64,000 bases of DNA from Patescibacteria group bacterium (GCA_041660165.1 JBAZWW010000006.1:10337-74336), one strand, 5' to 3'. Positions 2,079 to 45,154 are shown, counted from the first letter of the stretch. Numbers and translations: made by a program. The notes: generated by a model from the letters alone, not told the origin.

Positions 2079-2102
2079 AGACCCTGACGTGAGGAAGGGT
2101 CT
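2079..2102. repeat. Family-1 hairpin element (stem AGACCCT / AGGGTCT, loop GACGTGAGGA)
   Basis: One of six copies of a short hairpin with a conserved 10-nt loop and variable stems (see findings). Confidence 0.6.
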
Positions 2103-2228
2103 AGAGGTGATGTAAACGGCTTCGCTGTGTTGAGTGCCCGCTGGTCTCCTCGACGAGAATAAATAACTGCGAGCCTGAGACATTAGGCGAATGGGAGGGA
2201 AAGAATCATCATCCGGGAACAAGACACT

Positions 2229-2254
2229 CTGGTGTACACTTAAGTGTACACCAG
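2229..2254. repeat. 26-bp perfect palindrome CTGGTGTACACTTAAGTGTACACCAG
   Basis: Read directly from the sequence; lies in the convergent intergenic region between the GT2 gene and the relE-like gene. Confidence 0.8.
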
Positions 2255-2403
2255 GAAAGAACGCCTTTTTTACATACTACCCCCGCCATATCCGCGTCTA
2301 TTCCCCCTTTGGCCTCCCCCTTTTAAAAGAATCAGAAAATTGCCTCAAGCTCTAAAAGCTTTCGAGCGGAACGGCGGGCGTTCTGCTTTTATCAACTTGA
2401 GAA

Positions 2404-2670
2404 CTAGCCTCGCTTGTACGCATCGTGGTCATCAATAGCCATTAGATAAGCACGGCGGGGATTCCCAATATAGCGGAAGATGATCCGTATCTTATAGTTC
2501 ACGGAAAACGCGTGACGATCATTCATACGCCCATGCAGTTTATGCACCTTTAGCGTCTTGTGATTTTCCGTATCGGCAAAGAGATCGATTTTCTCTAATC
2601 CTTCTTTCTGAAGAGTGACGGGCAACGAATGAAAAGCGCGCAGAAAACTTAGAGCATAGGAAACCTCCAT
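2404..2670 (-). CDS. Type II toxin, RelE/ParE family
   Basis: 88 aa; C-terminal pattern HKLHGRMNDRHAFSVNYKIRIIFRY...AYLMAIDDHDAY is typical of RelE/ParE. Sits immediately downstream of an RHH antitoxin gene. Confidence 0.65.
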   Translation of the reverse strand: MEVSYALSFLRAFHSLPVTLQKEGLEKIDLFADTENHKTLKVHKLHGRMNDRHAFSVNYKIRIIFRYIGNPRRAYLMAIDDHDAYKRG

Positions 2671-2675
2671 ACGGC

Positions 2676-2897
2676 TTACCGCATCCGCTTCAGAATCTCC
2701 CGGAGATCTCCCCGAACCTCCTTCCCTTCCTTCAATTCTTGTTCAGCAAGAAGAACCGACTCGACGAGTTTTTCTTCAGCATAGCGCGAAAGCGCTTGGC
2801 GCACTACCTCGGCCTTCGTTGAGGCAGAGCCATTTTTCACCATGCGATTCACAAATCGTTCAAGCTGGAGCGGGACGGGGATCGAAAGAGTAATCAT
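2676..2897 (-). CDS. Ribbon-helix-helix antitoxin (ParD/CopG-like)
   Basis: 73 aa; N-terminal RHH-like segment (ITLSIPVPLQLERFVNRMVKNG) followed by a helical tail; 5-nt gap to the toxin gene. Confidence 0.6.
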   Translation of the reverse strand: MITLSIPVPLQLERFVNRMVKNGSASTKAEVVRQALSRYAEEKLVESVLLAEQELKEGKEVRGDLREILKRMR

Positions 2898-2915
2898 ATG
2901 ATATGATCATATCAT
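2898..2915. promoter_or_regulatory. 18-bp perfect palindrome ATGATATGATCATATCAT abutting the antitoxin start codon (putative TA operator)
   Basis: Perfect inverted repeat seen in the sequence directly 5' of the antitoxin ATG, the classic position for an autoregulatory operator. Confidence 0.5.
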
Positions 2916-2946
2916 ATCTATCATTCAAAGGACAACGCGTCGGGGT

Positions 2947-4023
2947 CTAGAGCTCTACCCGCGCGTGATCACCTACTACAAGTTTATGCCCGTGCGGTAA
3001 GGATTCCTCGACCCTAGTAACAACGGCATTCTTTCCAATGAGACTGTCAACAATGCGCTTGTTCGCTCTGATGGCGGCGCCGTCAAAAACGATAGAGTGT
3101 TCAATTTCAGTGCCATCGACCACCACGGAATTGCCGATAGAAGTGTAAGGGCCGATGTAGGCGTCATTGATGACGCAACCCTCGCCGATCACGACAGGAC
3201 CTCGGATCAGTACTCGCGAACCAATCTTCGTGCCAGCGCCAATACTAACCTTGCCCTGAATAATCGCGCCGTCCGCAACTTCGCCCTGCATGACCACGCG
3301 CTCCATGGGCATCTCATTTAAGAACAGCGCATTGCCTTCAAGCAAATCTTCTGGGTTGCCCGTGTCCTTCCACCAACCAGTAATTTCCTCGTGCCCGACG
3401 TTATAATTGTTCTGCAAAAGCCAAGTGTGAATGTCCGAGATTTCATACTCGCCCCGGGCCGAAGGCTGGATGTGCTTGAACGCCTCAAAGAAGCTCTTGT
3501 CATACACGTAAATACCGGTCACGGCGTACTGGCTCTTCGGCTCAGCCGGCTTTTCTTCGACACGCACAATCTTGCCGTTCTCAAACACCGGCACGCCAAA
3601 ACGGTTCGGATTCTTTACCTTTGAAAGGGCGAGTAGACAGTTCAATTTCTCGGACTCAAATTTCTCGACAAATCGCCGAAGACTGCCGAGCACAATGTTA
3701 TCGCCCAAAAAGAAAATAAATGGTTCATCCCCAATAAATGCTCTTTGCGCATTGACCGCATGAGCAATGCCGAGCGGACCGCCTGGCTGTTCGAGGTACG
3801 AAAGCTTCGCCCCGTACTTTGATCCGTCACCAAAAGCACCCTGAATTTCTGTGTCGCCAATGTTGACGTTAATACCAATCTCGGTAATTCCAGCATCGAC
3901 CAGTTTCTCAATTGCATAGCCTAACATCGGCCGGTTGGCCAAGGGAATCAGATGCTTGTTCAAGGTCCACGTAATAGGACGCAAGCGCGTGGCGCGCCCT
4001 CCGGCGGTCAAAAGTGCTTTCAT
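2947..4023 (-). CDS. rfbA: Glucose-1-phosphate thymidylyltransferase-like sugar nucleotidyltransferase fused to a C-terminal hexapeptide-repeat (LbH) domain
   Basis: N-terminus MKALLTAGGRATRLRP..., GGPLGIAHAV; C-terminal ~120 aa of left-handed beta-helix repeats (IGxxVxIxxGAVI-type); 358 aa against ~290 for a plain RmlA. Confidence 0.8.
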   Translation of the reverse strand: MKALLTAGGRATRLRPITWTLNKHLIPLANRPMLGYAIEKLVDAGITEIGINVNIGDTEIQGAFGDGSKYGAKLSYLEQPGGPLGIAHAVNAQRAFIGDEPFIFFLGDNIVLGSLRRFVEKFESEKLNCLLALSKVKNPNRFGVPVFENGKIVRVEEKPAEPKSQYAVTGIYVYDKSFFEAFKHIQPSARGEYEISDIHTWLLQNNYNVGHEEITGWWKDTGNPEDLLEGNALFLNEMPMERVVMQGEVADGAIIQGKVSIGAGTKIGSRVLIRGPVVIGEGCVINDAYIGPYTSIGNSVVVDGTEIEHSIVFDGAAIRANKRIVDSLIGKNAVVTRVEESLPHGHKLVVGDHARVEL

Positions 4024-4877: not shown

Positions 4878-5893
4878 AGCGAAATGTGATTATTGATGTC
4901 CTTCACGCGCTCAACTGCCCTAGCTGTCCAATCTTGATGCGCCAAAAACCACTCAACCGTCTCTTTCAAACCTTGTTCAAACATCTCGCTCCCGTACTTC
5001 GGCCTCCAGCCAAGCTCGCGCCGAATCTTTTCACTCGATAGCGAGTAACGGCGGTCATGGCCGGGGCGATCAGCTACATAAGCGAGCAAGGTCTCAGGCT
5101 TGCCGAGAATACCCAAAATCATTTTCGCGATATCTATGTTCGCTCGCTCATTGTCCGCGCCGATATTATAAACCCCGCCAAAGACCCCGCGTTCCAGCAC
5201 GGCCAAAATGGCCGAGCAATGATCCCCAACGTGCAGCCAATCACGCACATACTTGCCGTCGCCATAAAGCGGTAACGGTTGATCAGCAAGTGCCTTCGAA
5301 ATAAAAAATGGGATGATCTTTTCCGGGAAATGATACGGGCCGTAATTGTTCGCCGCGTGCGTGACCATCACTGGCGTGCCGTAGGTTTTGAAATACGCTC
5401 GGCACAGCAAATCTCCGCCAGCCTTGCTGGCCGAGTACGGAGAATTCGGCTCGAACGTGTCAGTCTCCACACTCGGAAAACCGGAGTCGAGCGGGTGCGC
5501 GCCAAAGACCTCGTCCGTAGAAATATGTACGAAAGCGGTTGTCTTATGTTTCTTCACGGCCTCGAGCAGAACCTGTACGCCGAGCACGTTCGTGCGCACA
5601 AAATCCGCCGCTCCCCCATGGATAGAACGATCAACGTGCGTTTCCGCGGCAAAGTTCACAATGGCATCCGGTTTAAAATCTTCAAAGACTTTATCGACGA
5701 GTCCAACACTCGTAATGTCCCCCTTCACAAATCTATACCGAGGATCCGACTCAATATCCTGTAAATTTTCCGAATTCCCCGCATACGTCAGCAGGTCATA
5801 ATTCAGCACCTGCACAAACCTCCGCTCATGCAAAACATGACGAACAAAGTTCGACCCAATAAACCCCGCGCCTCCTGTAACGAGCAATTTCAT
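4874..5893 (-). CDS. rfbB: dTDP-glucose 4,6-dehydratase
   Basis: 339 aa; TGGAGFIGSNFV, YSASKAGGDLL (YxxxK), a typical RmlB short-chain dehydrogenase. 4-nt overlap with rfbD. Confidence 0.85.
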   Translation of the reverse strand: MKLLVTGGAGFIGSNFVRHVLHERRFVQVLNYDLLTYAGNSENLQDIESDPRYRFVKGDITSVGLVDKVFEDFKPDAIVNFAAETHVDRSIHGGAADFVRTNVLGVQVLLEAVKKHKTTAFVHISTDEVFGAHPLDSGFPSVETDTFEPNSPYSASKAGGDLLCRAYFKTYGTPVMVTHAANNYGPYHFPEKIIPFFISKALADQPLPLYGDGKYVRDWLHVGDHCSAILAVLERGVFGGVYNIGADNERANIDIAKMILGILGKPETLLAYVADRPGHDRRYSLSSEKIRRELGWRPKYGSEMFEQGLKETVEWFLAHQDWTARAVERVKDINNHISL

Positions 5894-5953
5894 ATCACCC
5901 TATACCTTACTGGAAAACGCCCTTGCCGGTCAATCCTGAATACCTATCTAGGA

Positions 5954-8574: not shown

Positions 8575-8576
8575 AA

Positions 8577-10253
8577 TTATTTACTCTTCGTTATCCGATA
8601 AAGGCTTTCCTCGTCCATGGTTTGCACCAGCTCGAACCTCAGCTCATCGGCCTTGAATCTCTCATTGTTCAAGAAATCAAGGTCTGTCTGCGGGAAGGTA
8701 ATACCAAAGTAATACGTTGGAGCGTGAGCCACAAGGGCCGGCAGTGCAGAATATGTTTGGTCATCACGAAGCGGTGTGACAACTGCCCGCTTGGGAAATA
8801 GATATTTATCTGCACGATCAACCACGATAATCGAGTTCAGTTCTGTGTGCGAGAGAATCTGATAGCGTTTGCTGATGAATGAATTGAGCGCCGAGCGAGA
8901 TTCGATAAGGCCATCGTGGCCGTTCAAAACAAGATCTGTCGAGTTCACACAACCGGCGAGGACTAGGACTGCAAGCATCGCTCGCCAAGCCATTTTGTAC
9001 ATTTTGTACATTTCGTATCTGATCGAGATGTAACGCCATGCGGATATGAACAGGTACCCGGCGAATGGCATCGATAAGGCAAACATGGGCAGCCAATAGC
9101 GAACGTAGGAATTTCCTATGGAAATAATCTTCAGATCCGGGTTGTCATGAATATTCGCGCTTCCATAAAAAGCTACGAGCCAAGCGCTTACAAAAACCGT
9201 AATCGCGAACAGCACCTTCCAGGCCTTCTTTTTTTCAAATTTTCGGACAATGAGCAGAAGCGCGCCAAGGAGAGACGGGATGGTCATCCATGGGTACAAC
9301 ACAATGCCGTAGGACCAGAAGTTGCGGAGAATAGCGCGGGGGTGGAGGCCGAAGGGAAGTGAGAAGGTTAGAAAGGGTGAGAGAGGGTGAGAGAGGGTTG
9401 AATCCGAGGCGGTACTTGAAATCACGGTGGCTACAGGGGCGGAGACATGAACCGTGTACCCCGTGGTAAGCATGGAGCCGTATACCCAGGAGTTCATTCC
9501 TAAAATCACCACGCAAAGCGCGCCAAAGCCAAGGAGCGAGTAAAAAATATTGCGCCAGCCCAGTTCATTGCGATAGACAATGAGTAAGATTGCAAAAACC
9601 GGGATCACCCACGGCGCCTCGGCCGTCCGAATGAGAAGAGCTGTACCGATCATGGTGCCGGCCAAGAAAAACTCGATCCTGCGGAAATCCTTTGCCAGCA
9701 CTGATTTCAATCCCAGCGGGCGGGCCACGGCAAAATATAGACCAAAAATAACGAAGGCGAGAAAAGCAACATTGTGAAGCATCACTCGCCCGCTGAAATA
9801 AAGGAACGAGGGATGGATCATGAGGAACAGCGCGGACAGATCCGCCAGCGCTTCATCCTCAAAGAGTTTGTTAATGACTGATCGAAAGGCAAGGACAGCG
9901 AGCAGTGCGAGAAACGGAGTGACGAGAAGCGCGCCCGTGTCCCCCGCGAATCGGTACACAGCGCCGGCCAAGAGAGGCAGGCCAAGAAAACTTCCTGGCA
10001 ATAATCGCTCGCCAACGGCCACTATGCTTCGGGGGTGTAATACTTCGGTGTTCAGATTGCCACGCGTTCCCGAATCAGGCATGACCGGCGCGGACAGCTC
10101 CCCCGTATTTCCAAATGTTTGGGCAAAGTAGAAATTAGCGCTTTCGTCAGGAGAGAGGAAGACGCGTTCGGAAAAACTCGACAAAAAAAGCGTGGACACA
10201 AAAAACGCCACCAAAAGCGCACCGCGCAACAGATCCTTCAGCCACGTTTGCAT
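8577..10253 (-). CDS. Polytopic membrane protein, putative GT-C-fold glycosyltransferase (PMT/ArnT-like)
   Basis: 558 aa with >=10 predicted TM helices; DE-containing first loop (SPDESANFYFAQTF) reminiscent of GT39/GT83 enzymes; context among glycosyltransferases. Confidence 0.4.
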   Translation of the reverse strand: MQTWLKDLLRGALLVAFFVSTLFLSSFSERVFLSPDESANFYFAQTFGNTGELSAPVMPDSGTRGNLNTEVLHPRSIVAVGERLLPGSFLGLPLLAGAVYRFAGDTGALLVTPFLALLAVLAFRSVINKLFEDEALADLSALFLMIHPSFLYFSGRVMLHNVAFLAFVIFGLYFAVARPLGLKSVLAKDFRRIEFFLAGTMIGTALLIRTAEAPWVIPVFAILLIVYRNELGWRNIFYSLLGFGALCVVILGMNSWVYGSMLTTGYTVHVSAPVATVISSTASDSTLSHPLSPFLTFSLPFGLHPRAILRNFWSYGIVLYPWMTIPSLLGALLLIVRKFEKKKAWKVLFAITVFVSAWLVAFYGSANIHDNPDLKIISIGNSYVRYWLPMFALSMPFAGYLFISAWRYISIRYEMYKMYKMAWRAMLAVLVLAGCVNSTDLVLNGHDGLIESRSALNSFISKRYQILSHTELNSIIVVDRADKYLFPKRAVVTPLRDDQTYSALPALVAHAPTYYFGITFPQTDLDFLNNERFKADELRFELVQTMDEESLYRITKSK

Positions 10254-12854: not shown

Positions 12855-13018
12855 ACAGGAACTGTCTTATCGCGACTGAGTTGCGTTAGCAAAAGCTACA
12901 GTGTAGCGATAACATAAGACACCGGAGAGCAAACCAATAACCCACCTGTAGATCCTTCGTCTACACTCAGGATCTGGCTCACGGTATGGCCCTTCCCACT
13001 TTAAAAGTTCCCTACTGA

Positions 13019-14233: not shown

Positions 14234-14243
14234 AATCCGGTTC

Positions 14244-14267
14244 CCATCCCGACGTGAGGAGGGATAG
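14244..14267. repeat. Family-1 hairpin element (CCATCCC-GACGTGAGGA-GGGATAG), 11 nt upstream of the GT4 start on the minus strand
   Basis: Identical 25-mer also present at 45131-45155. Confidence 0.6.
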
Positions 14268-14285
14268 AATTGGATGCATCCTTGC

Positions 14286-14310
14286 TACCCCTCCTATCGT
14301 CGGGGTGGGA
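14286..14310. repeat. Family-1 hairpin element, inverted copy (ACCCC-TCCTATCGTC-GGGGT)
   Basis: Second copy in opposite orientation ~20 nt from the first; the stem covaries (ACCCC/GGGGT). Confidence 0.55.
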
Positions 14311-14313
14311 GCA

Positions 14314-15396
14314 TTAGCGCTCTCCTTGTAGAATTCCGTTATACGCCTGCAGTAATGAGCGCGCAAGAGCGCTGTTGTCATATCTTTCCATGACGCGGGC
14401 GCGGGCAGCTGCGCCCATAATCACAGCGTCTTCTGGATGCTCTACAAATCGGCATATTTGGAGCGCCAAATCTGCGGGATCGCCAGCTTTTGCTACATAT
14501 CCTGTTCGCTTGGCGTCAACCAGTGTTCTGACACCTGGGAGGTCGCTGACAATTGACGGCAAACCGGAAGCCGCGGCCTCCAGCGTAACCAACCCGAAGG
14601 CCTCTCCCCGATTTATCGCTGGCAGCACATGAACATCTGCGGAGCGATAGGCACCCGGCAATTCCTCAGCCGAGATCCCGCCAAGGAAATGCACGCGCTC
14701 GTTTATCATGAGCTCGACGGCCAGCTTTTCATAGAACGGTTTAAGATCGCCACTGCCAACAATCGTCAGATGCACACTTGTCGGGACCATCAAGAGTGCT
14801 CGAAGCAACACGTCAACACCCTTAAAATCATGCGCCTTATCAAGCCCGCCGACAAAAATAATGTTCAACGCCTCCCGCGGAATGCCGAGCGTCTCTCGCA
14901 GTGCACTATTTTGTCCCGGAGAGAATCGGGTAGCGTCTACGCCGAAGGGCATCTGTATAAGACGCTTGTGTTTTATGTTTGCTTCTTGTGCGTATTCTGA
15001 CGAGCTCACGAATACGCATTTTGCAACTGCAAAGATAATCGGTTCAATCACCGCTCGGTGGATAGAGAAAATAACATTTCGCCAATCACTCGAGACCGCC
15101 TTCATATGATACGTAAGGACGAGCGGGGTGCGCCAGATGACTGAGGCAATGGCCGAAAAAATATCCATGCCATAACACGGATAGTGGACATGAATGATGT
15201 CGAAACCTTTCAACGCTCGAACGAGCCCCGGCATAACAGCGGCGTTGCCATAGGCGAAAAGTGGCCGAGCGGTACTCGGCGCAAACACTCTAACCTCATG
15301 GCCGATGGCCTTGAGTGCATTGGCCTGGGCCTCAGCCACAGCGCCAATCCCGCCCTTATACGGAGGAAAAACGGGAGTAACGATGGCGATTTTCAT
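14314..15396 (-). CDS. Glycosyltransferase family 4
   Basis: 360 aa; MKIAIVTPVFPPYKGGIG..., EAFGLVTLEAAASGLPSIVSD. Confidence 0.8.
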   Translation of the reverse strand: MKIAIVTPVFPPYKGGIGAVAEAQANALKAIGHEVRVFAPSTARPLFAYGNAAVMPGLVRALKGFDIIHVHYPCYGMDIFSAIASVIWRTPLVLTYHMKAVSSDWRNVIFSIHRAVIEPIIFAVAKCVFVSSSEYAQEANIKHKRLIQMPFGVDATRFSPGQNSALRETLGIPREALNIIFVGGLDKAHDFKGVDVLLRALLMVPTSVHLTIVGSGDLKPFYEKLAVELMINERVHFLGGISAEELPGAYRSADVHVLPAINRGEAFGLVTLEAAASGLPSIVSDLPGVRTLVDAKRTGYVAKAGDPADLALQICRFVEHPEDAVIMGAAARARVMERYDNSALARSLLQAYNGILQGER

Positions 15397-15412
15397 AAAA
15401 TCTTCTTATCTC

Positions 15413-15482
15413 CACCCTGAACGACAGTGAAGGGTCCGACCCTCACCAGTGAAAGTCGGATCCTTCGCATAGCTCAGGATGG
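15413..15482. repeat. Family-2 ~70-nt imperfect palindromic intergenic element
   Basis: CCACCCTGAAC...GAAGGGTCCGAC-CCTCACCAGTGAAA-GTCGGATCCTTC...GCTCAGGATGG; related copies at 31248-31319 and 32175-32247. Confidence 0.65.
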
Positions 15483-15495
15483 TAACCATTCAGAG

Positions 15496-27610: not shown

Positions 27611-27803
27611 AAATTTACCTAATCCTTTTTATCCCCGTAAAGGGGTAAAGAATAGAGGCAATCACCAGACCATGCGGTCTCGACCTTTGAAAGTGTTACC
27701 CGGGACGCGATAACGCGATCCCTTTCCGAGAGACGTCTGTGGGACATCTCCCGTGAAGGAAGTGGGTTATGAGGTGGGTTATTGAGTAGGTTATGGAGTG
27801 GGT

Positions 27804-27829
27804 TAGACCCTGACGCTAGGAAGGGTCTA
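27804..27829. repeat. Family-1 hairpin element (TAGACCCT-GACGCTAGGA-AGGGTCTA) containing the anti-sigma gene stop codon in its loop
   Basis: 8-bp stem; loop variant GACGCTAGGA; followed by GAGGTG as at 2103. Confidence 0.6.
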
Positions 27830-28961
27830 GAGGTGGTGCTATTGGAACTTCTTTTTTGACGGCTTCCTCAGTTGCTTTCGCGGCGGCTGCGGTGGCGGCA
27901 TCTTTAGCGGCCTGGACGTCATCAAGCGTGGTTGTAATCATGAACTCTATGTCGGCAAGTTTTCCTTCAAGGGCTAAGAGCTCGCTGTCCACTCCTTGTA
28001 ATGTGTCAAAGGCTGATCTGTATCCTCCGGCTGCAAAGCCGTTCATGGCTTCCGGAATTTGCAGGCGGGTTTGTTTAATGATGAGGGTCATGTGCCGGAG
28101 ATCATCCGCCGTTGGCACTCCACCAATGCCTTTGAAGACCACGTTGCCACTGATGGTGTCGGTAATTGTGGCGATTCTATGCTCGTCAAATGTTTGTCTT
28201 GCCTCAATTGCGCCAAGTTCTTTCTTAAACATTTCTTTCAATTCTTGGCCTGAGCGCTGGGTGGCTGAAGCTTCATGGACGTCTACCGCAACGGTAGTGG
28301 CGGCTTCCTGTGTATCTTTTGCGGCCTGTTTGGCTACCAGCGCTTCCTGCCCCGCCTCTGGCTGTTCACTAGCGGCCGCGTTCTGATCAATCACGGTCTT
28401 CATGGCATCAATTTTGTTCTGCACATCTGTAACAACCGCAAGGGCTTGGCCAGATTCAACCGTGCCCTTCAAACTCTTGAGATCGGCTGAAGCCTGAGAA
28501 AGTTCAGTAGCGTATTCATGCATTGCAGTCTTGGCCAATTCGAGGTGGGCGACGCGAGCGTCGCCCGTACTACGCAGTTGCGTTGCTTCGTCCAATCGGC
28601 GCTCAGCGAATTCCGTGTGGAGGACTGCCCTTCTATCAAGTGAGGCAAGTCTTAGCTGGGCTTGTTCAGTGATTCGCTTCACCGAGTAGAGCGTATCGCC
28701 AGGAAGGCTGTTTGAGGCCGCGCTCACGGTAGAAAGACTGCCGGAGAAAAGGACAAGGGCGGAGACACCAATGGTGACGGGCTTTGAGATGAAAGAACCA
28801 AGATACCAAGAGACATATGAAGGAGCGGTCTTCTGAACTGGAGCATCAACAGAAATACGGGCCATGAGGCGGGACTTCATTGCCTCATGCGCAGAAAACG
28901 AAAGCGCCCCGGCCTTGGGGTCATTTTTCAAACTGCTTAATTTAGCGAAGAGGTTTGACAC
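27816..28961 (-). CDS. Putative anti-sigma factor (single-pass membrane, DUF5667-like extracytoplasmic helical domain)
   Basis: 381 aa; cytoplasmic N-terminus, one TM (VTIGVSALVLFSGSLSTVSAA), helical/coiled-coil C-terminal domain; 25-nt overlap with the upstream ECF sigma gene. Confidence 0.55.
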   Translation of the reverse strand: MSNLFAKLSSLKNDPKAGALSFSAHEAMKSRLMARISVDAPVQKTAPSYVSWYLGSFISKPVTIGVSALVLFSGSLSTVSAASNSLPGDTLYSVKRITEQAQLRLASLDRRAVLHTEFAERRLDEATQLRSTGDARVAHLELAKTAMHEYATELSQASADLKSLKGTVESGQALAVVTDVQNKIDAMKTVIDQNAAASEQPEAGQEALVAKQAAKDTQEAATTVAVDVHEASATQRSGQELKEMFKKELGAIEARQTFDEHRIATITDTISGNVVFKGIGGVPTADDLRHMTLIIKQTRLQIPEAMNGFAAGGYRSAFDTLQGVDSELLALEGKLADIEFMITTTLDDVQAAKDAATAAAAKATEEAVKKEVPIAPPLDPS

Positions 28962-31136: not shown

Positions 31137-31247
31137 TCTTAGCAGAAAAATGGGCTTTTGTCAAGCCAAAAACCACATTTCTTCGCTATTGTCAGCGGCA
31201 AGTATACCCTGATTCAAATGCTTGAAATTCCCATATCCCTCTCTTCT

Positions 31248-31319
31248 CCATCCTGAGCGAGAGCGAAGGATCCGCCCCTCACACGTGAAAGTCGGACCCT
31301 TCGCATAGCTCAGGGTGGG
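31248..31319. repeat. Family-2 ~72-nt palindromic intergenic element
   Basis: CCATCCTGAGCGAGAGCGAAGGATCCG-CCCCTCACACGTGAAAGT-CGGACCCTTCGCATAGCTCAGGGTGGG. Confidence 0.65.
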
Positions 31320-31332
31320 AATAATACTCAAG

Positions 31333-32166
31333 CTATTTGGGTTCAAGGACAATCACCCTCTTCGCGCCGTGTTCAGGATCCCCGCTGTTCCAATCGCCAA
31401 TGGCGTTCATGAAGACGGAAGTGTTGTAGGAATAATTCTCGCCGTGCCTGGTGCCGGGGTCATTCGTAATGAAGGTGTCTTTCGTGTACCCGCGGATGAC
31501 AAGCATGTGATAGAGCGGGCCCTCGCCAGTGAAAAACGGGTTGCCCAGCTTCCGGCCGGCAGCGGGAGCAACGATGGGATCGCCTTTTTTGATCAAGGCT
31601 TTAAGCTCGTCAACTGTCGGATTATCGATCACCCTGGCCGTAAACTTATCCGAATATTTTTCGAGTGTGGCCACCGTCTCGGCCGACGTCATACTCAAAC
31701 CATAGCCGAGTGAATTCTCGATGTCCGTCATCTTGGCGTATTCATCTTCTGCAAACTGCGGGTCAAGCGTTTCAGCTTTTGTGCCTTGGTAATACTCGAC
31801 GGCCATTAACAGCGAGGCCTCTTCACATGTTTCTTCATGGTAGGCGTCCCATTTCATAAAGGGAGCCTGCGAAGAGAACGGGACGGAGAGATTGAATTCG
31901 ACGGCTGAGGGAGGAGGAACCACCGGTGGAGCTGTTGGAATTATCGAGGGGACCAATGCCGGAGGCAAGGCTACCCCTCCTGGCGTCGGGGTGGGAGTGG
32001 TTGAGTTATCGCTAGAAACAACCTCGTCGTGCGTAACCGAAGGGACAGTGGCGGTGGGAACGGTGGGACGCGAAAAGTACGCCTGGATTCTTAATCCGCC
32101 GGCCACCACAAGAACAATGAGAAGCGGAATAAATGCCTTCCAAGAAATCGGTGTTCGCGTTTGCAT
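31333..32166 (-). CDS. Membrane-anchored peptidase C39-like (YvpB-like) domain protein
   Basis: 277 aa; N-terminal TM, Pro/Thr-rich linker, then SQAPFMKWDAYHEETCEEASLLMAVEYY (Gln/Cys of the C39_2 fold) and a later His (HMLVIRGY). Confidence 0.5.
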   Translation of the reverse strand: MQTRTPISWKAFIPLLIVLVVAGGLRIQAYFSRPTVPTATVPSVTHDEVVSSDNSTTPTPTPGGVALPPALVPSIIPTAPPVVPPPSAVEFNLSVPFSSQAPFMKWDAYHEETCEEASLLMAVEYYQGTKAETLDPQFAEDEYAKMTDIENSLGYGLSMTSAETVATLEKYSDKFTARVIDNPTVDELKALIKKGDPIVAPAAGRKLGNPFFTGEGPLYHMLVIRGYTKDTFITNDPGTRHGENYSYNTSVFMNAIGDWNSGDPEHGAKRVIVLEPK

Positions 32167-32174
32167 ATAAGTTT

Positions 32175-32247
32175 CCCATCCCGAGCCATGCGAGGGATCC
32201 GACTCTCACATGTGAGGGGCGGATCCTTCGCTCTCGCTCAGGATGGG
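32175..32247. repeat. Family-2 ~73-nt palindromic element, inverted relative to the 31248 copy
   Basis: The reverse complement is ~90% identical to the 31248-31319 element; lies 8 nt upstream of the C39-like gene start. Confidence 0.65.
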
Positions 32248-32256
32248 AACCGTCAA

Positions 32257-34585: not shown

Positions 34586-34694
34586 AGCCTCCTTGTTATT
34601 AAACGGGGACAAAGAAAATTTCGTCCCTGAAGAATGTTGATTACCGCGAAAGTATATCATAGCTCTTAGCGCTCATTATACACGCCCTCTGCTC

Positions 34695-34718
34695 CCACCC
34701 CGACGTGAGGAGGGGTAG
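34695..34718. repeat. Family-1 hairpin element (ACCCC-GACGTGAGGA-GGGGT)
   Basis: ~110 nt upstream of the small membrane protein start; followed by a perfect TATAAT. Confidence 0.55.
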
Positions 34719-34741
34719 TATTTCTAGGGCTCGAGGTTTGT

Positions 34742-35572
34742 TTAGGCGATACTCTTTTTTGTTGGCTGTTTCAAAAAGTTTTGCTTTGACACAATCGGCC
34801 GGCCAAGTTTTTTCTCAAGTTGTTTTCTTGCACCGCCGGCAATTGTGCCACCGGCTCTGGCGTCGGCTTTGAGTTTCTTTACGCCTTTCGAATTCTCGTT
34901 GCGATGGATCTCCGTAGTCGAACGCTCACCGAGCATGTTAAAGATGAGCTCGAAATCATCCATATGATCGCGCAGATTCTCGCGTTTCAAGCCCTTGAGC
35001 TTTTTGTACTCAGTTGGCGTAACCCCAAAAGTGGCTTTAGAGATTTCTGCCGTCAAAATCTCATAATCGCCACTTTCTTTGGCCCCGCGATTTTTCCATT
35101 CGTCCGTAAGCTCTTCGCGGATGACGATTCCGCGCATGCGCTTCTCAATCCAGTCTTCGTTGTATCCCTTCAGCTTGTAGAGTATGCGGGTACGCTTTGT
35201 TGCGAGTTCGGGATTCTCGATCTCCTGCACACGCTCAAATCCAACCTTGGCAAGCCAACGCTTGAAGGGTTCTGCTTTAGGAGAAGGAACAGATTGAATT
35301 ATGCGAAACATGCCCTCAATATCAGCACAATCCGTCTCTCGCATCTTCCCGTCCGGAGCTTCCAATTTCAACTGGTGACATTTTGTCACCACTTCACTTC
35401 CCTCTTCTCGTAGCCGTTGAGATAACTTATTCCAATATTTTCTCGCCACATAATCATCCTCCTGGTCAATGAGCGCCCGAATAACATCCACCACCGAAAA
35501 CCACCACTCACCATTGACAAGTGCCTTGCGTATCTCCTTACCCTTGAACAATGCAATGTGGTTGTTCGTCAT
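34742..35572 (-). CDS. DinD-like DNA-damage-inducible protein (N-terminal Bro-N domain)
   Basis: 276 aa; Bro-N signature LFKGKEIRKALVNGEWWFSVVDVIRAL; C-terminal half parallels E. coli DinD (GLKRENLRDHMDDFELIFNMLGERSTTEI...). Confidence 0.65.
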   Translation of the reverse strand: MTNNHIALFKGKEIRKALVNGEWWFSVVDVIRALIDQEDDYVARKYWNKLSQRLREEGSEVVTKCHQLKLEAPDGKMRETDCADIEGMFRIIQSVPSPKAEPFKRWLAKVGFERVQEIENPELATKRTRILYKLKGYNEDWIEKRMRGIVIREELTDEWKNRGAKESGDYEILTAEISKATFGVTPTEYKKLKGLKRENLRDHMDDFELIFNMLGERSTTEIHRNENSKGVKKLKADARAGGTIAGGARKQLEKKLGRPIVSKQNFLKQPTKKSIA

Positions 35573-35581
35573 ATGTTCGTA

Positions 35582-35806
35582 TCATACCACATCTGAAACA
35601 CTTCCCTGCCAGCCCCAATCTTTAATAACTTTCGCCAGCTCCTCCTTCAAATCCGCTTTGCCAAGTTTGCACTCCTGAAACGGCCCGCTAAAAAATGGCT
35701 TCATCTTGTCCCATATAATGCCGTAGGCTTCCTGGATACGAGCCGAGAATTTCGGCGAGAGAAGCGTCATGCCGTCGGCGTCAAAGAGAATAGCCTTGTA
35801 GGTCAT
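35582..35806 (-). pseudogene. HAD-superfamily hydrolase N-terminal fragment (74 aa; motif I only)
   Basis: AILFDADGMTLL is HAD motif I (DxDG[TV]); the ORF stops before cap/motifs II-IV; wedged between the Fic and DinD-like genes with 3-nt and 9-nt gaps. Confidence 0.4.
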
Positions 35807-35809
35807 AAA

Positions 35810-36427
35810 CTATGATTTTGGTTTTCGACTCAGCCCGGCGTAAACAATCCTCTCCATCGGTAAATACTGCTTGGACATGCCTTTAATACACGCATGGATA
35901 TATTCATCTTGAGTTTTCTTGGCCCAGTCAATCGGATAGTATCCACTGTTTACTACCAAGAGATCAAGGAACAGACGAATCGTTCGGCCATTTCCTTCCC
36001 GGAAAGGATGAATCGCATTCAGCTCGCTATGTAAGAACGCAACCTTCTTTGCCATCTGCCTCTTAGTATCACTGTCCTTCGGGGTGTTGAGCTTAAAACT
36101 AGCCTCAAACTCTTTCAGTGAGGTTGGCAAATGAGCCAAAGCGGCAAACTGCATTCCATTCTTAGCAATGTCCACCGTTCTCACCTTTCCTGCCCAAGTA
36201 TAGAGCGGGGAAAGAAAATACTGATGAATCTCAAAAAGTGTCTTGGGGCCAAATCTCATTCTACCCTGAGCAAGCAAATCAAAAAAATACTCGTATGCAT
36301 CAGAAAAAAGATGTGTTTCGGCATCATCAAGCGCTGCTTGAGTATGAATTCCGAGTTTATTTTTCAAAACTTTACCATCCATCCCAGATGCTTCACCGCC
36401 TACACTATAGCGAGAATGCTCTGCCAT
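35810..36427 (-). CDS. Fic/Doc-family protein (putative AMP/phospho-transferase)
   Basis: 205 aa; canonical Fic motif HPFREGNGRTIRLFLDLL. Confidence 0.8.
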   Translation of the reverse strand: MAEHSRYSVGGEASGMDGKVLKNKLGIHTQAALDDAETHLFSDAYEYFFDLLAQGRMRFGPKTLFEIHQYFLSPLYTWAGKVRTVDIAKNGMQFAALAHLPTSLKEFEASFKLNTPKDSDTKRQMAKKVAFLHSELNAIHPFREGNGRTIRLFLDLLVVNSGYYPIDWAKKTQDEYIHACIKGMSKQYLPMERIVYAGLSRKPKS

Positions 36428-36616
36428 AGCGTTTTAATACCTTAATAATTGAGGCGTTATTCCTCGCTCTGGCCACGCTCTGCCCCTCCATTTTTGAAGA
36501 TTGAGCCACGGCCTTCTTTATAGCAATTTTGGAAATTGAGACGCCTTTGGTCATACAAAAACCATCTTTATATTATCTATATTCTATCATTAGCTACTTA
36601 TAATATCAATCTACCC

Positions 36617-37162
36617 TTAGCGTTTCAAATATTCCTCCCGGCTCATCACCTTTCTCAGGTCAGTAAATTTGTCGAGACAGACGATTCCCTGCAGATGATC
36701 ATACTCATGCTGAATACATTTTGCGAGTAAGCCGTCCGCGGAAACGGTGAACGGTTTTCCGTCAGCATCGTATGCTTGAATGGTAATTTTTGACGGTCGT
36801 TTCACGGGACCGAATAATTGGCCATGCGCTAAACTTCCGCAACCTTCGTACAGGAGAGTTTTGGTTTTCGATAAAGCAATGATCCGCGGATTTATGTAGA
36901 CGCAAAGTACTGAAGCTTCTTTGACTGCTTTTCGCGTAGCGGTCTTTCGTATTTCCGTCACAAAAATCTGCAACTCACTCCCAATCTGCGGGCCGGCCAT
37001 GCCGATCAATCCGTGATGGCGCATGTGGGCAATGAGGGACGCAATGACTGATCGAGTTTCTGGCGAGGAAATATCTGTCACTCGACGAGCCTTCTGTCGG
37101 ATAATCGAGTTCCCCACTTGAATGATGGGTTTCATTTTGAGGCTCATAGAATGTTGCATCAT
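36617..37162 (-). CDS. def: Peptide deformylase
   Basis: 181 aa; GLIGMAGPQIG (motif 1), EGCGSL (motif 2), QHEYDHLQG (motif 3). Confidence 0.85.
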   Translation of the reverse strand: MMQHSMSLKMKPIIQVGNSIIRQKARRVTDISSPETRSVIASLIAHMRHHGLIGMAGPQIGSELQIFVTEIRKTATRKAVKEASVLCVYINPRIIALSKTKTLLYEGCGSLAHGQLFGPVKRPSKITIQAYDADGKPFTVSADGLLAKCIQHEYDHLQGIVCLDKFTDLRKVMSREEYLKR

Positions 37163-37278
37163 CTAAAGCTACACGGTAGCGATAGCGGAACTACCGTCTT
37201 CACAATAGATACATAAGACTCTTATGTATTTTTATTTCGCCCTCATTTTCCCCCTTCCTTTAGAAGATTCAGGATGAC

Positions 37279-38377: not shown

Positions 38378-39367
38378 TTGTCTCGTTCCTTCCCACAGGA
38401 GTTTCCCATGGTCCCCAAGCGAGCAGACCCTGCGCGCCTGGCCAGGCCGCGCGCGAAAACCAAGACCCAACAGAACCGCGAGCTCTTTGAAGAGTTGGCT
38501 AAAGCCGACAAAGCCACGGCGGTCAGGCTACGGAATGAAATAGCTACTTTCAATCTGCCGCTCGTGACCACCCTGGCGAAGCAACAGCTTTGGCGCGCCG
38601 AGATGTCCAATATGACCCTGGAAGATCTCATCCAGGAGGGCTGTTTTGGCCTCATGACAGCCATAGACAAATTCGACCTCAGCCGGAACAAAGCGTTTAG
38701 CACCCACGCGGGCTGGTGGATCAGGCAGGTCATTTGCCGAAAGCTCGACGAAAATAGCGGTCAGCATGGCGGACGCATGCCCACCACCAAAGCCCAATTG
38801 ATCGCCACGGTTAGGCGAGAGAAAACAAAGTTGGAACAGCAACTTGGCCGAATGCCCACGGAACAGGAGATCGTTAATCGCTTCGTGGATCCCGCTGATG
38901 CGGGCCAAAGGCGGTACAACACCGCGCAAAAGAACGTTCGCGGAGCACTCCGCCTGGCGGAACAACGCATCTTTGCTCTAGACATGGCAAATGATGAGGG
39001 CGAATTCCCTGGCCACAGCCTGATCCCGAGCGAGATAATATCGCCCGAAACGATTGCTACCGCCAGATCGGAACTAGCTGAACTCAATGATCTGCTGGCC
39101 ACCATAAAAAGCCTCCTGGAAACACATGGCCACCGTGACGCGGATATCATGCGTCTCCGTCTAGGGATGGACGACGAAGAGATCCCTCCCCTTGAGTCCC
39201 TGGGAGAAAAATACGGCGTGAGTCGCGAAAGAATCCGGCAAGTGGAGCTGAAGGTCAATCGGCACATTAACCGCGTCATTCGCCCAAGAACAAGCTCATC
39301 GGCCGCTGAGCTGGTGCGTCGCCGTAGAAAAATCCTTGACCTTCTCAAGGGCAGTTACGTCTTTTAG
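38378..39367 (+). CDS. RNA polymerase sigma factor, sigma-70 family (compact RpoD/group-3-like)
   Basis: 329 aa; region 2 (QEGCFGLMTAIDKFDLSRNKAFSTHAGWWIRQ), regions 3 and 4 (LESLGEKYGVSRERIRQVELKVNRHINRV). Confidence 0.75.
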   Translation: MSRSFPQEFPMVPKRADPARLARPRAKTKTQQNRELFEELAKADKATAVRLRNEIATFNLPLVTTLAKQQLWRAEMSNMTLEDLIQEGCFGLMTAIDKFDLSRNKAFSTHAGWWIRQVICRKLDENSGQHGGRMPTTKAQLIATVRREKTKLEQQLGRMPTEQEIVNRFVDPADAGQRRYNTAQKNVRGALRLAEQRIFALDMANDEGEFPGHSLIPSEIISPETIATARSELAELNDLLATIKSLLETHGHRDADIMRLRLGMDDEEIPPLESLGEKYGVSRERIRQVELKVNRHINRVIRPRTSSSAAELVRRRRKILDLLKGSYVF

Positions 39368-39429
39368 CGCCCCGCCTCTCACCGGTCGATACCGGAACGG
39401 AGAGATGCCCGGGGCGTTTGTTGTTTTAT
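39366..39429. repeat. 64-bp direct repeat copy 1 (embedded intrinsic terminator: long GC hairpin + TTTGTTGTTTT)
   Basis: AGCGCCCCGCCTCTCACCGGTCGATACCGGAACGGAGAGATGCCCGGGGCGTTTGTTGTTTTAT; identical copy at 40468-40531. Confidence 0.85.
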
Positions 39430-40467: not shown

Positions 40468-40531
40468 AGCGCCCCGCCTCTCACCGGTCGATACCGGAAC
40501 GGAGAGATGCCCGGGGCGTTTGTTGTTTTAT
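40468..40531. repeat. 64-bp direct repeat copy 2 (terminator), shared convergently with hicA
   Basis: Identical to 39366-39429; ends at the hicA stop codon. Confidence 0.85.
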
Positions 40532-42693: not shown

Positions 42694-42733
42694 ATAACCG
42701 AAAACCACTCGCCATAAACGAGTGGTTTTCTCT

Positions 42734-42901
42734 TTATCCCCACCTCGATAACGAATCGCTTAAAACCATGTTGCAATAGAAGGGTCAGAAATAGCAAACT
42801 CCCCATTTAGTTGGCGGAGTTTTTGTTTGTTTTATTCGATAAAAGGAGGCCTATGTAGAAAACTATCCGTGAGCTATACTTTATTCAGTAATACCTTTCG
42901 T
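42734..42901. repeat. ~165-bp direct repeat copy 1 (promoter/leader region of a small-protein gene)
   Basis: ~90% identical to 43723-43889 (TTATCCCCACCTCG...ACCATGTTGCAATAGAAGGGTCAGAAATA...TTTTGTTTGTTTTATTCG.TAAAAGGAGGCCTATGTA...). Confidence 0.8.
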
Positions 42902-43108
42902 ATGGATAAACAGGAATTTACACAGATACTCACCCAGGCTCTCTCCGACCAATCTCGCGATCTGCGCGAGTACACTGATCAGCGCGTCTCTGCTTCGGAA
43001 AGACGAATCCTTGATGGCGTGGGCGAAATGTTCGATGGCCTGAGTCCGCAGTTCAACAATCACGAGCGCCGAATTCTAAAACTTGAGAAACTCGTCCACG
43101 CCACATAA
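42902..43108 (+). CDS. Small conserved hypothetical protein, paralog 1 (68 aa)
   Basis: C-terminal 38 aa nearly identical to the paralog at 43890-44153 (DQSRDLREYTD...GVGEMFDGLSPQFNNHERRILKLEKLVHA). Confidence 0.6.
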   Translation: MDKQEFTQILTQALSDQSRDLREYTDQRVSASERRILDGVGEMFDGLSPQFNNHERRILKLEKLVHAT

Positions 43109-43119
43109 TGCCCCACAAA

Positions 43120-43150
43120 AATCCCGCCGTGAGGCGGGGTTTTGTTATTT
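43120..43150. terminator. Bidirectional intrinsic terminator (CCCGCCGTGAGGCGGGG + TTTTGTTATTT)
   Basis: Between the convergent small gene and lipoprotein gene. Confidence 0.7.
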
Positions 43151-43675
43151 CGCCTTGAACGAAGCGAAGATTTGATCAATGTCCTTCATCTGCTCCACAT
43201 ACTTGTCCTGCCGACCGTCATAAATGTAGGACCAAGGACCGGTTTTCGCCACGACGCCTCCGTAGAAAGCGCTCGTCGCATTACTGCCGAGGAGTTTCTC
43301 TGTTGGGTACTTGGCCATCTTTGACTGGTCTTTCAAGTCGATCGACATGATGGCAAACAAGTACAACAAGTCCTCGCCCTTTGGTTCGTAATAAAATGCG
43401 CGGGATTTTCCAGGCACGTCATAGGCCAAAAATTCTTCCTTTGGCCCATAGCCGTCAAAGTCCTCAAAGTTCTTAATCCCCATCCAACGTTCCGGAAATG
43501 AAAACGAATAGCGAGGATCCTCCGTAAACTCGAAGGTCAAAACCTTGCTCGGTGGTGTCTCAATGACAACGTCAGGAACAGTGTAGTTCGAAGCCGGCGC
43601 TGGAATGGTCGAGGACTGAGCGCACCCGACGCCGAGGAGCATGAGAAGCGCGATCGACAAAAGTGATTTTTGCAT
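43145..43675 (-). CDS. Putative lipoprotein / secreted protein
   Basis: From the internal Met: MQKSLLSIALLMLLGVGCAQSS (signal peptide with Cys). The longer track ORF runs into the repeat. Confidence 0.55.
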   Translation of the reverse strand: MQKSLLSIALLMLLGVGCAQSSTIPAPASNYTVPDVVIETPPSKVLTFEFTEDPRYSFSFPERWMGIKNFEDFDGYGPKEEFLAYDVPGKSRAFYYEPKGEDLLYLFAIMSIDLKDQSKMAKYPTEKLLGSNATSAFYGGVVAKTGPWSYIYDGRQDKYVEQMKDIDQIFASFKAK

Positions 43676-43722
43676 ATGGGGAGATGGTAGCACAAAAATA
43701 GCCAGCGGACGGAGAAGTAAAC

Positions 43723-43889
43723 TTATCCCCACCTCGCCCAGCAAACACCTTAAACCATGTTGCAATAGAAGGGTCAGAAATATCAAACTCCCCATTTACT
43801 TGGCGGGGTTTTTGTTTGTTTTATTCGGTAAAAGGAGGCCTATGTAAGAAATCGTCAGTGCGTTATACTTTATTCAATAAGCATCTCAT
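43723..43889. repeat. ~165-bp direct repeat copy 2
   Basis: See copy 1. Confidence 0.8.
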
Positions 43890-44153
43890 ATGAATGAACA
43901 GATAATTCAGAAATTACTAACCCAGGCGCTTACGACCAATAACAAGGTCCTTCTTGGCCAAGTCAAGGAATATACCAATCAGGCCTTGGCCGATCAATCC
44001 CGAGATCTCCGAGAATATACCGATATGGAACTTAAAAGAACAAGGCAAGAAATCCTCGAAGGCGTAGGCGAAATGTTTGATGGCCTGAGCCCGCAGTTCA
44101 ATAACCACGAACGGAGAATTCTCAAACTAGAAAAACTTGTTCATGCATCGTAA
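43890..44153 (+). CDS. Small conserved hypothetical protein, paralog 2 (87 aa)
   Basis: Same family as 42902-43108 with a 20-aa insertion; followed by the terminator CTCCGCTCCACATGGGCGGAG + TTTTAG. Confidence 0.6.
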   Translation: MNEQIIQKLLTQALTTNNKVLLGQVKEYTNQALADQSRDLREYTDMELKRTRQEILEGVGEMFDGLSPQFNNHERRILKLEKLVHAS

Positions 44154-44210
44154 CAACCTAGCAAAACTCCGCTCCACATGGGCGGAGTTTTAGTTATCCC
44201 CATGACATTC

Positions 44211-44265
44211 TTGCGTTCGGTTTCCGTTCGGTTATGATAAGGGTAGACAAGAACAGATCGCGAAC
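44211..44265 (+). promoter_or_regulatory. lexA promoter (TTGCGT-16-TATGAT) overlapped by two direct-repeat boxes, GTTC-N7-GTTC (44215-44229) and GAAC-N7-GAAC (44251-44265): candidate LexA operators
   Basis: Motifs read from the sequence. GTTC-N7-GTTC is the alphaproteobacterial-type LexA box (established knowledge); its relevance here is inferred. Confidence 0.4.
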
Positions 44266-44292
44266 AAGTGATCTGAGATAATTTACACATAT

Positions 44293-44913
44293 ATGGCTCC
44301 TCTGCCGCCACTCACTAAGAGACAGCGAGACGTGCTCGACTGTATAGAAGCCTTTGTGAGAAAGAACAGCTACACGCCGTCGTACCGAGAGATCGCCGAG
44401 AAGCTGGGTCTCTCTTCACCGGCCACTGTTCATCAGCACATTAAGGCGCTGTGTGAGAAGGGCATCATCAATACGGGCGAGCACGGGATCGCGCGCTCGA
44501 TCGAAGTCGTCGAGACAGAACTCGTCTCCCCGCTCGCCATCATGCTCCCGCTTTCAGGATTGATTACCGCGGGCGAACCGATCGAAGCGATCGAAGACAG
44601 GGAGACGATCGCCGTGCCAACAGACTTCGTGCTTGACCCAATGAATTCGTACGTGCTCAAAGTGAAAGGACGATCAATGATTGAGGACGGGATTTTTGAC
44701 GGAGACTTCGTCGTCATCGAAAGAAATCCTTCGCCGAAAAATGGAGACATTGTCGTGGCCTTACTCGACAATGCATACGCAACGCTCAAACGTTTCTACC
44801 GAGAGAAAGACCATATCCGTTTACAACCCGCCAACAGCTCAATGAAACCTTTCATTATCAAAGGGGACATCAATATCCAGGGAATAGTAAGAGCAGTGTT
44901 AAGAAAGTTCTAA
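44293..44913 (+). CDS. lexA: LexA repressor (S24 peptidase)
   Basis: 206 aa; N-terminal winged HTH (YREIAEKLGLSSPATVHQHIKAL); C-terminal S24 domain with Ser (VKGRSM) and Lys (TLKRF). Confidence 0.9.
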   Translation: MAPLPPLTKRQRDVLDCIEAFVRKNSYTPSYREIAEKLGLSSPATVHQHIKALCEKGIINTGEHGIARSIEVVETELVSPLAIMLPLSGLITAGEPIEAIEDRETIAVPTDFVLDPMNSYVLKVKGRSMIEDGIFDGDFVVIERNPSPKNGDIVVALLDNAYATLKRFYREKDHIRLQPANSSMKPFIIKGDINIQGIVRAVLRKF

Positions 44914-45130
44914 AAAACTCATATGTCAATCCTCGCCTTACGCCGCTACCAAGTGGCGCCGGATTATTGCATCTCAGTTGTGACCGTGAGGGATAAGAAA
45001 CAGCGAGTTTCAAAACTCAGAATTCACCGCCGAAGAATAAGACAAACGTTTCGAACGATCCTCGCGCAGGTTTCGCTGCCCCGATACGTCACGTTCAAGC
45101 ATAAGCTCCGATAATTCATAGCAACCAATA

Positions 45131-45154
45131 CTATCCCTCCTCACGTCGGGATGG
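45131..45154. repeat. Family-1 hairpin element (CTATCCC-TCCTCACGTC-GGGATGG), 12 nt upstream of the orfX start codon
   Basis: Reverse complement identical to 14243-14267. Confidence 0.6.

Follow-up and report, generated by a model that had tools for sequence, protein, structure and literature searches.

Repetitive extragenic palindromes (REPs) carrying CGTC or TGTC tags (CGTC-1 to CGTC-4) include dRS3 of Neisseria and RPE-4 and RPE-6 of Rickettsia, some of the Rickettsia palindromic elements (RPEs) being classed among them (Di Nocera, De Gregorio & Rocco, 2013; PMC3733652). According to the available text of that survey, a unit consists of a terminal CGTC, TGTC or CCTC tag, an 8–9 bp stem starting with AT (first pair A-T, then T-A), a loop of 4–5 nt and a short tail, mostly CCA. 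The sub-families described there have complementary stem changes, the units are mostly head-to-head (HH) dimers, often heterodimers, and the elements are sited after genes, between open reading frames (ORFs) of the same direction or convergent, with some in-frame intragenic copies, many of them in Rickettsia conorii. The same text names five phyla, including Bacteroidetes and not Patescibacteria, and gives no associated transposase. Another closely comparable group is that of the GTAG REPs, REPINs and RAYTs of E. coli and Pseudomonas (Bertels & Rainey, 2011, PMC3116915; Nunvar et al., 2013, PMC3686654). Here we report a set of small hairpins, among them a family designated Family-1, in a 64,000-nt stretch of DNA from a Patescibacteria group bacterium (GCA_041660165.1 JBAZWW010000006.1:10337-74336). 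This whole stretch is referred to as the window, and positions are counted from its first letter. We consider the hairpins to be a family of REP-type elements in a Patescibacteria chromosome (probability of roughly 0.75), and Family-1 is one sub-family of the larger hairpin set.

The window and 14 kb more of the same contig were examined (78 kb). A structural scan, in which a copy was defined by a stem of at least 5 bp and GA-N-GNNA-N'-GA, gave seven Family-1 hairpins in the window compared with 0.02 in shuffled sequences (shuffle maximum of 1), and no further copy by this definition was found in the 14 kb beyond the window. The pattern GACGHKAGGA occurs seven times in the window versus 0.73 expected, and none of 100 shuffles reached seven; one of these occurrences, at 11150, is stem-less and falls within coding sequence. 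When the 78-kb contig was searched for the loop alone (GACGNNAGGA), eight sites were obtained, seven of which have stems of at least 5 bp with three different stem sequences. A preliminary description of this DNA had listed six hairpins, and their coordinates, loops and stems were reproduced; the count rises to seven with a copy at 31973–31992 (minus strand), which was found by a scan that tolerated two loop mismatches and scored the stems. The observation itself is thus confirmed: the hairpins are real and beyond chance, and they extend to seven copies and a wider family. Two layouts are present in Family-1. Type A reads TCCC-AYCCC-GACGNNAGGA-GGGRT-AG (14246, 14287 (−), 31973 (−), 34697 and 45133 (−)), and type B reads AGACCCT-GACGNNAGGA-AGGGTCT-AGAGGTG (2079 and 27803). 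A covariance model was built from the Family-1 copies, and the bit scores given below are from that model.

The apical part of the hairpin had been presented as a 10-nt loop. Its sequence is conserved as claimed, and it looks structured, reading as a G·A mismatch, an A·G mismatch, a C-G pair and a GNNA tetraloop, the variable positions being the middle of the tetraloop. The inner C-G pair and a 4-nt loop are also seen in the ViennaRNA fold. In a relative (locus L013), the loop reads GAGGCCACGA, and the inner C-G pair is exchanged for G-C. Taking ATCCCGAC/GGAGGGAT as a stem of eight positions capped by GNNA would fit the stem of the CGTC REPs, but two of these positions are invariably G·A/A·G mismatches. 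Compensatory changes, which had been noted from the six copies, were found at every stem pair among 18 distinct copies. The covariation score was 0.455 against 0.17 for shuffled alignments (reached by 0 of 500 shuffles; slid controls, 0.03–0.14); many of the 18 copies were found by pairing-dependent methods, and it is the variety of pair types that is informative, not the percentage paired. Of the 18 copies, 16 have A-T as the first stem pair, and the second pair is either T-A or C-G. Type A has an AG(T/A/C) tail and type B an AGAGGTG tail; TGTC-tagged copies end in CT or CC, and the sister doublets of the window in CC. The Family-1 doublet at 14236–14316 folds into one long hairpin with a free energy of −51.9 kcal/mol and a z-score of −7.7. 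Covariation had earlier been taken as a sign of RNA rather than DNA. This does not follow, because single-stranded DNA hairpins covary equally, and wobble pairs as an indicator of the strand gave few informative cases, pointing both ways.

A generalized scan of the contig (stem, GA, inner stem of 1–3 bp, loop of 3–5 nt, GA, stem) gave 35 matches versus 11 in shuffles, and seven further hairpins in the window among these matches bear the same tags and stems. Family-1 and these sisters have a common plan of a short tag, a 5–7 bp stem, GA, an inner stem-loop, GA, the stem and a tail. The covariance model separates Family-1 (seven copies, 34–41 bits) from the sisters (seven, 11–18 bits) and from the background. 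A single sister with a 2-bp inner stem (12950–12975, minus strand, 18 bits) reads AGATCCT-GA-GT-GTAG-AC-GA-AGGATCT and is located in a convergent intergenic region. Three sister HH doublets are ~75-bp repeats detected by blastn. The first (15410–15484), seen by the generalized scan, blastn and the covariance model, consists of the units 15414–15435 (plus strand, ACCCT-GA-AC-GACA-GT-GA-AGGGT) and 15460–15480 (minus strand, ATCCT-GA-GC-TAT-GC-GA-AGGAT). The second (31246–31320, units 31250–31271 (+) and 31296–31316 (−)) lies between the start of a GT4 gene and the stop of a peptidase gene, and the third (32173–32248, units 32178–32198 (+) and 32223–32244 (−)) between the stop of a RecB-like nuclease gene and the start of the peptidase gene. 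All doublets, both those of the window and those of L013, L129, L131, L134 and L136, are HH with the tags outward. Just past the window edge, this contig (L123, 2052–2088) bears a hairpin with a longer inner stem-loop, TGTC-ATCCT-GA-GCCCGTC...GACGGGC-GA-AGGAT, and variants listed at L133 3306 (CGTC-tagged) and L140 1675 also have long inner stems. Hairpins tagged with TGTC or CGTC and built on the same plan are located at L131 1465 and at L136 9184 and 10517. At L133 ~2440–2500, L136 ~5740–5790 and L129 1938–2006, relatives have truncated left halves that abut full copies or, in one copy, a ~40-nt insertion in the inner loop. Such truncated and interrupted copies in relatives suggest nested insertion or recombination between elements.

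The asymmetric 8-of-10 core GACGNNAGGA is conserved and its copies occur in both orientations, and such a sequence might be a site read in double-stranded DNA, either an uptake sequence for competence of an episymbiont or a site for a nucleoid or topoisomerase protein. The DNA uptake sequence (DUS) of Neisseria and the uptake signal sequence (USS) of Haemophilus are inverted pairs located after genes, and the hairpins here resemble them in this respect. However, the stems covary with pairing kept, the inner C-G pair is exchanged for G-C, and the length of the inner stem-loop varies widely. These features point to a folded single strand rather than read-out of a duplex, and the only stem-less core (11150) is in coding DNA. 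We regard a duplex site as extremely improbable.

The Family-1 copies had been described as intergenic, and this holds for six of the seven, each located between genes or at the end of one. The type B copy at 2079–2102 (plus strand, 34.5 bits; AGACCCT-GACGTGAGGA-AGGGTCT with tail AGAGGTG) is in a convergent intergenic region, 55 nt past the stop of a GT2 gene (911–2023). Two type A units form a doublet that occupies the entire 80-nt gap separating two glycosyltransferase genes (14242–14310). Its left unit (14242–14267, plus strand, 40.8 bits) reads TCCC-ATCCC-GACGTGAGGA-GGGAT-AG, and its right unit (14285–14310, minus strand, 41.5 bits) has an ACCCC stem and the loop GACGATAGGA. The latter unit (14287) is 7 nt past the stop at 14314, and its partner (14246) is 12 nt before the GT4 start (14233). 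The other type B copy (27803–27830, plus strand, 36 bits) has the stem TTAGACCCT and the loop GACGCTAGGA; as previously noted, the loop contains the stop codon of an anti-sigma-like gene (TAG of the DUF5667 ORF 27816–28961, minus strand). A type A copy with an ACCCC stem and the loop GACGTGAGGA (34693–34720, plus strand, 40.4 bits; hairpin at 34697) is 25 nt past the stop of a Bro-N gene (34742–35572, minus strand). The type A copy at 45129–45156 (minus strand, 40.4 bits; hairpin at 45133), which has an ATCCC stem, is 18 nt past the stop of an uncalled 63-aa ORF (44923–45114) and 13 nt before the ATG of orfX (45166), a gene coupled to dinB. The remaining copy, ACCCC-GACGCCAGGA-GGGGT (31969–31996, with the hairpin at 31973–31992, minus strand, 40.6 bits), lies inside a coding region. 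It is in frame in a Peptidase_C39_2 gene (31333–32166, minus strand) and encodes TPTPTPGGVA, in a Pro/Thr linker that follows an N-terminal hydrophobic segment. The orthologue in L132 keeps an in-frame intragenic copy at the same place, which reads VPTPTTGGVV. None of the seven Family-1 copies of the window is in a divergent, promoter-type region. Among single copies between or inside same-strand genes in the window and relatives, the orientation relative to transcription is approximately 7 sense to 7 antisense, and most copies are nearer to the upstream stop codon than to any start. The preliminary description had counted four of six copies that precede a start codon and point the same way; that number is correct, but the bias disappears once more copies are counted.

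Elements of this superfamily are absent from relatives at three orthologous sites. L132 lacks a ~89-nt block that holds the doublet 32173–32248, and the nuclease stop and the peptidase start overlap there (GATAATATG, TAATATG); no target duplication was found in the comparison with L132 at this junction, the cleanest of the three, and the junctions share at most one base. L141 lacks the 45133 copy together with its conserved tail (~42 nt) and has in their place AAAGGAGGAC, a canonical Shine-Dalgarno (SD) sequence 5 nt before the orfX ATG. L144 lacks a TGTC hairpin that lies ahead of rplA in the comparison; two sister doublets are present at other places in L144. At the site of the window doublet 31250–31316, L132 has an unrelated palindrome. 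A REP-like repeat was the last alternative listed in the preliminary description, and it is the one that the repetition, the doublets, the presence of both orientations and the turnover at orthologous sites bear out.

Five of the seven window copies overlap a stop codon or lie at most 56 nt past one, and the hairpins, the doublets above all, are stable as RNA in either orientation. They might accordingly be viewed as functional 3'-end RNA elements, namely stabilizing or terminating hairpins or RNase processing signals placed by selection and not by transposition. Roles in stabilizing, terminating or processing transcripts are credited to REPs elsewhere, as stated in the text available from the CGTC survey (PMC3733652). 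Against such placement, copies are present in operons a few nucleotides ahead of the next start codon, the elements are absent at the three orthologous sites, and one copy is intragenic. A simple stabilizing stem needs no strongly conserved asymmetric apical sequence, and an intrinsic terminator was rejected because none of the copies has a T/U run behind it on the transcribed strand. Placement by selection at 3' ends is therefore unlikely, and a 3'-end role is more likely a by-product of a REP than a separate identity of the hairpins.

Proximity of some copies to start codons had led to the proposal of a translational operator or a hairpin that sequesters the ribosome-binding site, with one strand SD-like (GAGGAGG) and the other anti-SD-like (CCTCCTC). 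These strings are present in type A, where they are a by-product of the loop AGGA and the GGG stem, and are missing from the type B copies with the AGACCCT stem. Two copies and one sister doublet end in GGGATGGGAA 6–8 nt before an ATG, at GT4 (14233), orfX (45166) and the peptidase gene (32166), and the sequence reported as an identical 25-mer before GT4 and orfX is indeed shared, over 27 nt. A cis-regulatory RNA hairpin, in which a CCUCCU strand upstream of the start mimics an anti-SD or sequesters the ribosome-binding site, would suit these three ends. The canonical SD of L141 at the orfX site, where a hairpin is found here, indicates that the insertion replaced an SD, and the tandem-GA/GNNA apical fold is RNA-like. 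However, start proximity is unavoidable where an element of 80–90 nt fills an operon junction, and GGGATGGGAA stands near starts for this reason; doublets bear that end on both sides. An SD-like motif (GGAG, GAGG or AGGA within 17 nt upstream of the start) precedes only 15 of the 71 called genes on the contig (L120, L123 and L126), which is near the chance level (~16% by our own rough estimate), so SD pairing is not a general route of initiation here; translation initiation in this host seems to proceed mostly without it. The mixed orientation and the closeness of most copies to upstream stops described above also disagree with a translational hairpin, as do the doublets, the intragenic copy, the convergent-intergenic copies and the functionally unrelated neighboring genes. 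Finally, the Bacteroidota, in which the motif is abundant, rely little on SD. Neither a fixed orientation and distance to starts nor an SD-dependent organism was found, as would befit an SD-sequestering operator, and we judge translational control to be very unlikely as the identity of the element. Local effects on translation are plausible and look like consequences, not the purpose of the element.

The window is part of an ENA metagenome contig of 80,028 bp. GyrB homologues place the contig in Patescibacteria, near Candidatus Uhrbacteria, and the gene content (DUF5671, PEGA, NYN and toxin–antitoxin genes amid ribosomal protein genes) agrees with this placement. A metagenome scan with the type A consensus gave 24 strict copies on 12 contigs from three samples, to which the generalized scan of the same contigs adds sister hairpins. 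The copies in these relatives include the stems ATATC/GATAT and GCCT/AGGC, TGTC-tagged copies and HH doublets. The apical motif with TGTC or CGTC tags is present in the related contigs L131, L133 and L136. A pattern with 14 specified bases was used to scan a genome collection, and the matches listed comprise 119 loci, mostly chance; the extended context tGTCATCCCGACGNNAGGAGGGATCt is present in ~16 of these 119 loci, whose hosts are Cytophagales, Chitinophagales, Sphingobacteriales, Flavobacteriales and Bacteroidales. At least 12 Bacteroidota genomes have the apical motif with TGTC or CGTC tags, partly as doublets (perfect inverted doublets in, e.g., L006 and L038), and the genome-collection scan also brought up the relative L013. 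The apical motif is thus common to Patescibacteria and many Bacteroidota, whereas stems, tags and tails differ. A search of viral contigs for AYCCCGACGNNAGGAGGGRT gave no match and hence no sign of carriage by phages.

The hairpins agree with generic REPs in that they are many short palindromes, mainly extragenic after genes, with inverted dimers that fold together. In relation to the CGTC/TGTC REPs as the survey text describes them (PMC3733652), the units here likewise have an unpaired tag, a short tail at the opposite end, a stem that opens with A-T in most copies and, if GNNA is taken as the loop, a loop of 4 nt. They also share the complementary stem changes, HH dimers, sites after genes, an in-frame intragenic copy and the lack of a linked transposase (over ~78 kb and fragments). 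TGTC- and CGTC-tagged copies are present in related contigs, and a TGTC-tagged sister is present on this contig. The survey's supplementary peptide VIPAKAGI, in our own back-translation GTC ATT CCC GCG AAA GCG GGA ATC, has a layout that corresponds position for position to GTC ATC CCG ACG NNA GGA GGG ATC. Unlike the CGTC REPs of that text, Family-1 holds an invariant tandem G·A/A·G in what would be the 8-bp stem, its second pair is Y-R and not always T-A, and the host belongs to Patescibacteria. No report of REPs in Patescibacteria was found in the literature.

With GTAG REPs and REPINs (PMC3116915, PMC3686654), the hairpins share a dense intergenic distribution, inverted doublets forming long hairpins, compensatory sub-families, a hairpin with a conserved unpaired motif as the presumed recognition element, and a junction without target duplication. 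The 5' flank of Family-1 is, however, TCCC, with no GTAG at the foot of the hairpin; (G/A)TAG is found at the opposite 3' end, as a GGG-GTAG overlap in the ACCCC-stem copies and as ATAG in the others. Unlike in REPIN–RAYT systems, no RAYT gene was found in the 78 kb or in the related loci. The occurrence in a reduced genome, both in frame in protein genes and between genes, is reminiscent of RPEs, which are longer (~100–150 bp) and A+T-rich. The Rfam search proposed in the preliminary description (gathering thresholds; window and 18 related loci) gave no family overlapping the hairpins, and an E-value search gave only spurious matches elsewhere; no tRNA or transfer-messenger RNA was found by a dedicated scan. 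Several other candidates were rejected. A K-turn, suggested by the tandem G·A, requires a 3-nt bulge that is missing from the sequence, a CRISPR repeat disagrees with the layout and the absence of arrays, an attC site lacks its R/L boxes, and a DUS disagrees with the layout and with the covarying stems.

As REP-type elements, the hairpins would be small, non-coding, non-autonomous palindromes that spread into and turn over in short intergenic spaces. Each unit would consist of an unpaired 5' tag (YCC, or TGTC/CGTC in the sisters), a G+C-rich stem of 5–7 bp, the G·A and A·G mismatches, a short inner helix that in Family-1 is a single C-G pair, the GNNA cap and a short tail, and HH units would, as in REPINs or BIMEs, form one long hairpin. 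The GA-C-GNNA-G-GA tip may serve as the recognition surface of a protein that acts in trans and mobilizes or maintains the element by way of a single-stranded hairpin. Y1/HUH enzymes, which act on GTAG REPs, provide a model for this recognizer by analogy, and none was found in the available sequence. Because copies are transcribed within operons, they are probably also RNA hairpins in 3' untranslated regions and at gene junctions; an effect of these RNA hairpins on mRNA stability or downstream translation would probably be a side effect and not a designed function.

Several observations weigh against the assignment to REPs. In the window, the Family-1 tag is TCCC/YCC and not CGTC/TGTC (relatives have TCC or CCC before the stem), and its tail is AG and not CCA as in the CGTC REPs described in PMC3733652; the match to those families is based on the text of that paper and on one back-translated supplementary peptide. 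No Y1/HUH or other transposase domain is present in the Pfam tables of the contig, and a crude tblastn search over the loci, with IS608 TnpA and E. coli RAYT queries, found no mobilizing enzyme and matched only an IS200-like gene, unrelated to the hairpins, in L043, a locus that is itself a chance match. The copy counts cover 78 kb of the genome. Mobility is suggested by presence and absence among diverged relatives (~75–88% nucleotide identity), and these differences could partly reflect deletion. The stability of single units is modest, with z-scores of −1 to −2 as RNA and ~0 to −1 as DNA, and tandem G·A with GNNA is a classic RNA motif, so that the hairpins may have a primary role as RNA.

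A bolder form of the REP-type reading is that GA-C-GNNA-G-GA is the signature of an unrecognized hairpin-specific enzyme or host factor that mobilizes or maintains orphan CGTC-type REPs; we consider this conceivable though doubtful. If it is true, episymbiont genomes of ~1 Mb sustain active elements that reshape operon junctions and protein linkers. The tandem-GA/GNNA tip is a concrete handle for finding the protein that recognizes the transposase-less CGTC REPs. Most catalogued REP-type repeats come from Proteobacteria and a few other phyla, and the present set is an incremental addition to a known class with no new mechanism. For a strongly streamlined genome of ~1 Mb, about ten loci in 64 kb is notably dense. 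The elements are placed at operon junctions, and they replaced an SD once, extended or ended ORFs, and added linker residues in frame. They are therefore relevant to gene calling, to genome evolution and to assembly, as contigs break at these sites.

A Logan contig of the same organism (L128, 5174–5195, equivalent to 2080–2102 of the window) ends within the 2079–2102 hairpin, which indicates that short-read assemblies break at the repeat, as expected for a dispersed repeat. L013 and L141 both derive from GCA_964348985.1 (CAYGEQ01), titled 'uncultured Gammaproteobacteria bacterium'. L141 is syntenic with the contig (~70–77% identical) and L013 has the same doublet, and the title of this assembly looks wrong. 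L141 lacks the Bro-N, Fic and peptide deformylase genes that in the window (34586–37278) separate the PPIase gene from metK; a DUF1294 gene occupies this place in L141 (~8613–9090). The segment looks like a variable islet, with the 34697 hairpin at one border.

The uncalled ORF upstream of the 45133 copy (44923–45114, plus strand) encodes a basic protein of 63 aa (MSILALRRYQVAPDYCISVVTVRDKKQRVSKLRIHRRRIRQTFRTILAQVSLPRYVTFKHKLR) and is flanked by lexA and the dinB-coupled orfX. Because this ORF is conserved in L141, the lexA-orfX-dinB cluster probably has one gene more than annotated. A purine-rich inverted repeat at 23201–23284 (31-nt arms, 90% complementary), located between the gene for a MopE-repeat protein and a gene of 1401 aa, is unrelated to Family-1 and is the source of the spurious Rfam matches to microRNA precursors. 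A perfect 64-bp direct repeat (39366–39429 and 40468–40531) brackets a 346-aa gene of unassigned function that follows a sigma-70-like gene, and could represent a recent duplication or an insertion boundary. Direct repeats of ~220 bp with 82% identity (42734–42953 and 43723–43940) flank the gene at 43145–43795; each contains a small ORF, and they look like tandem paralogous small genes.

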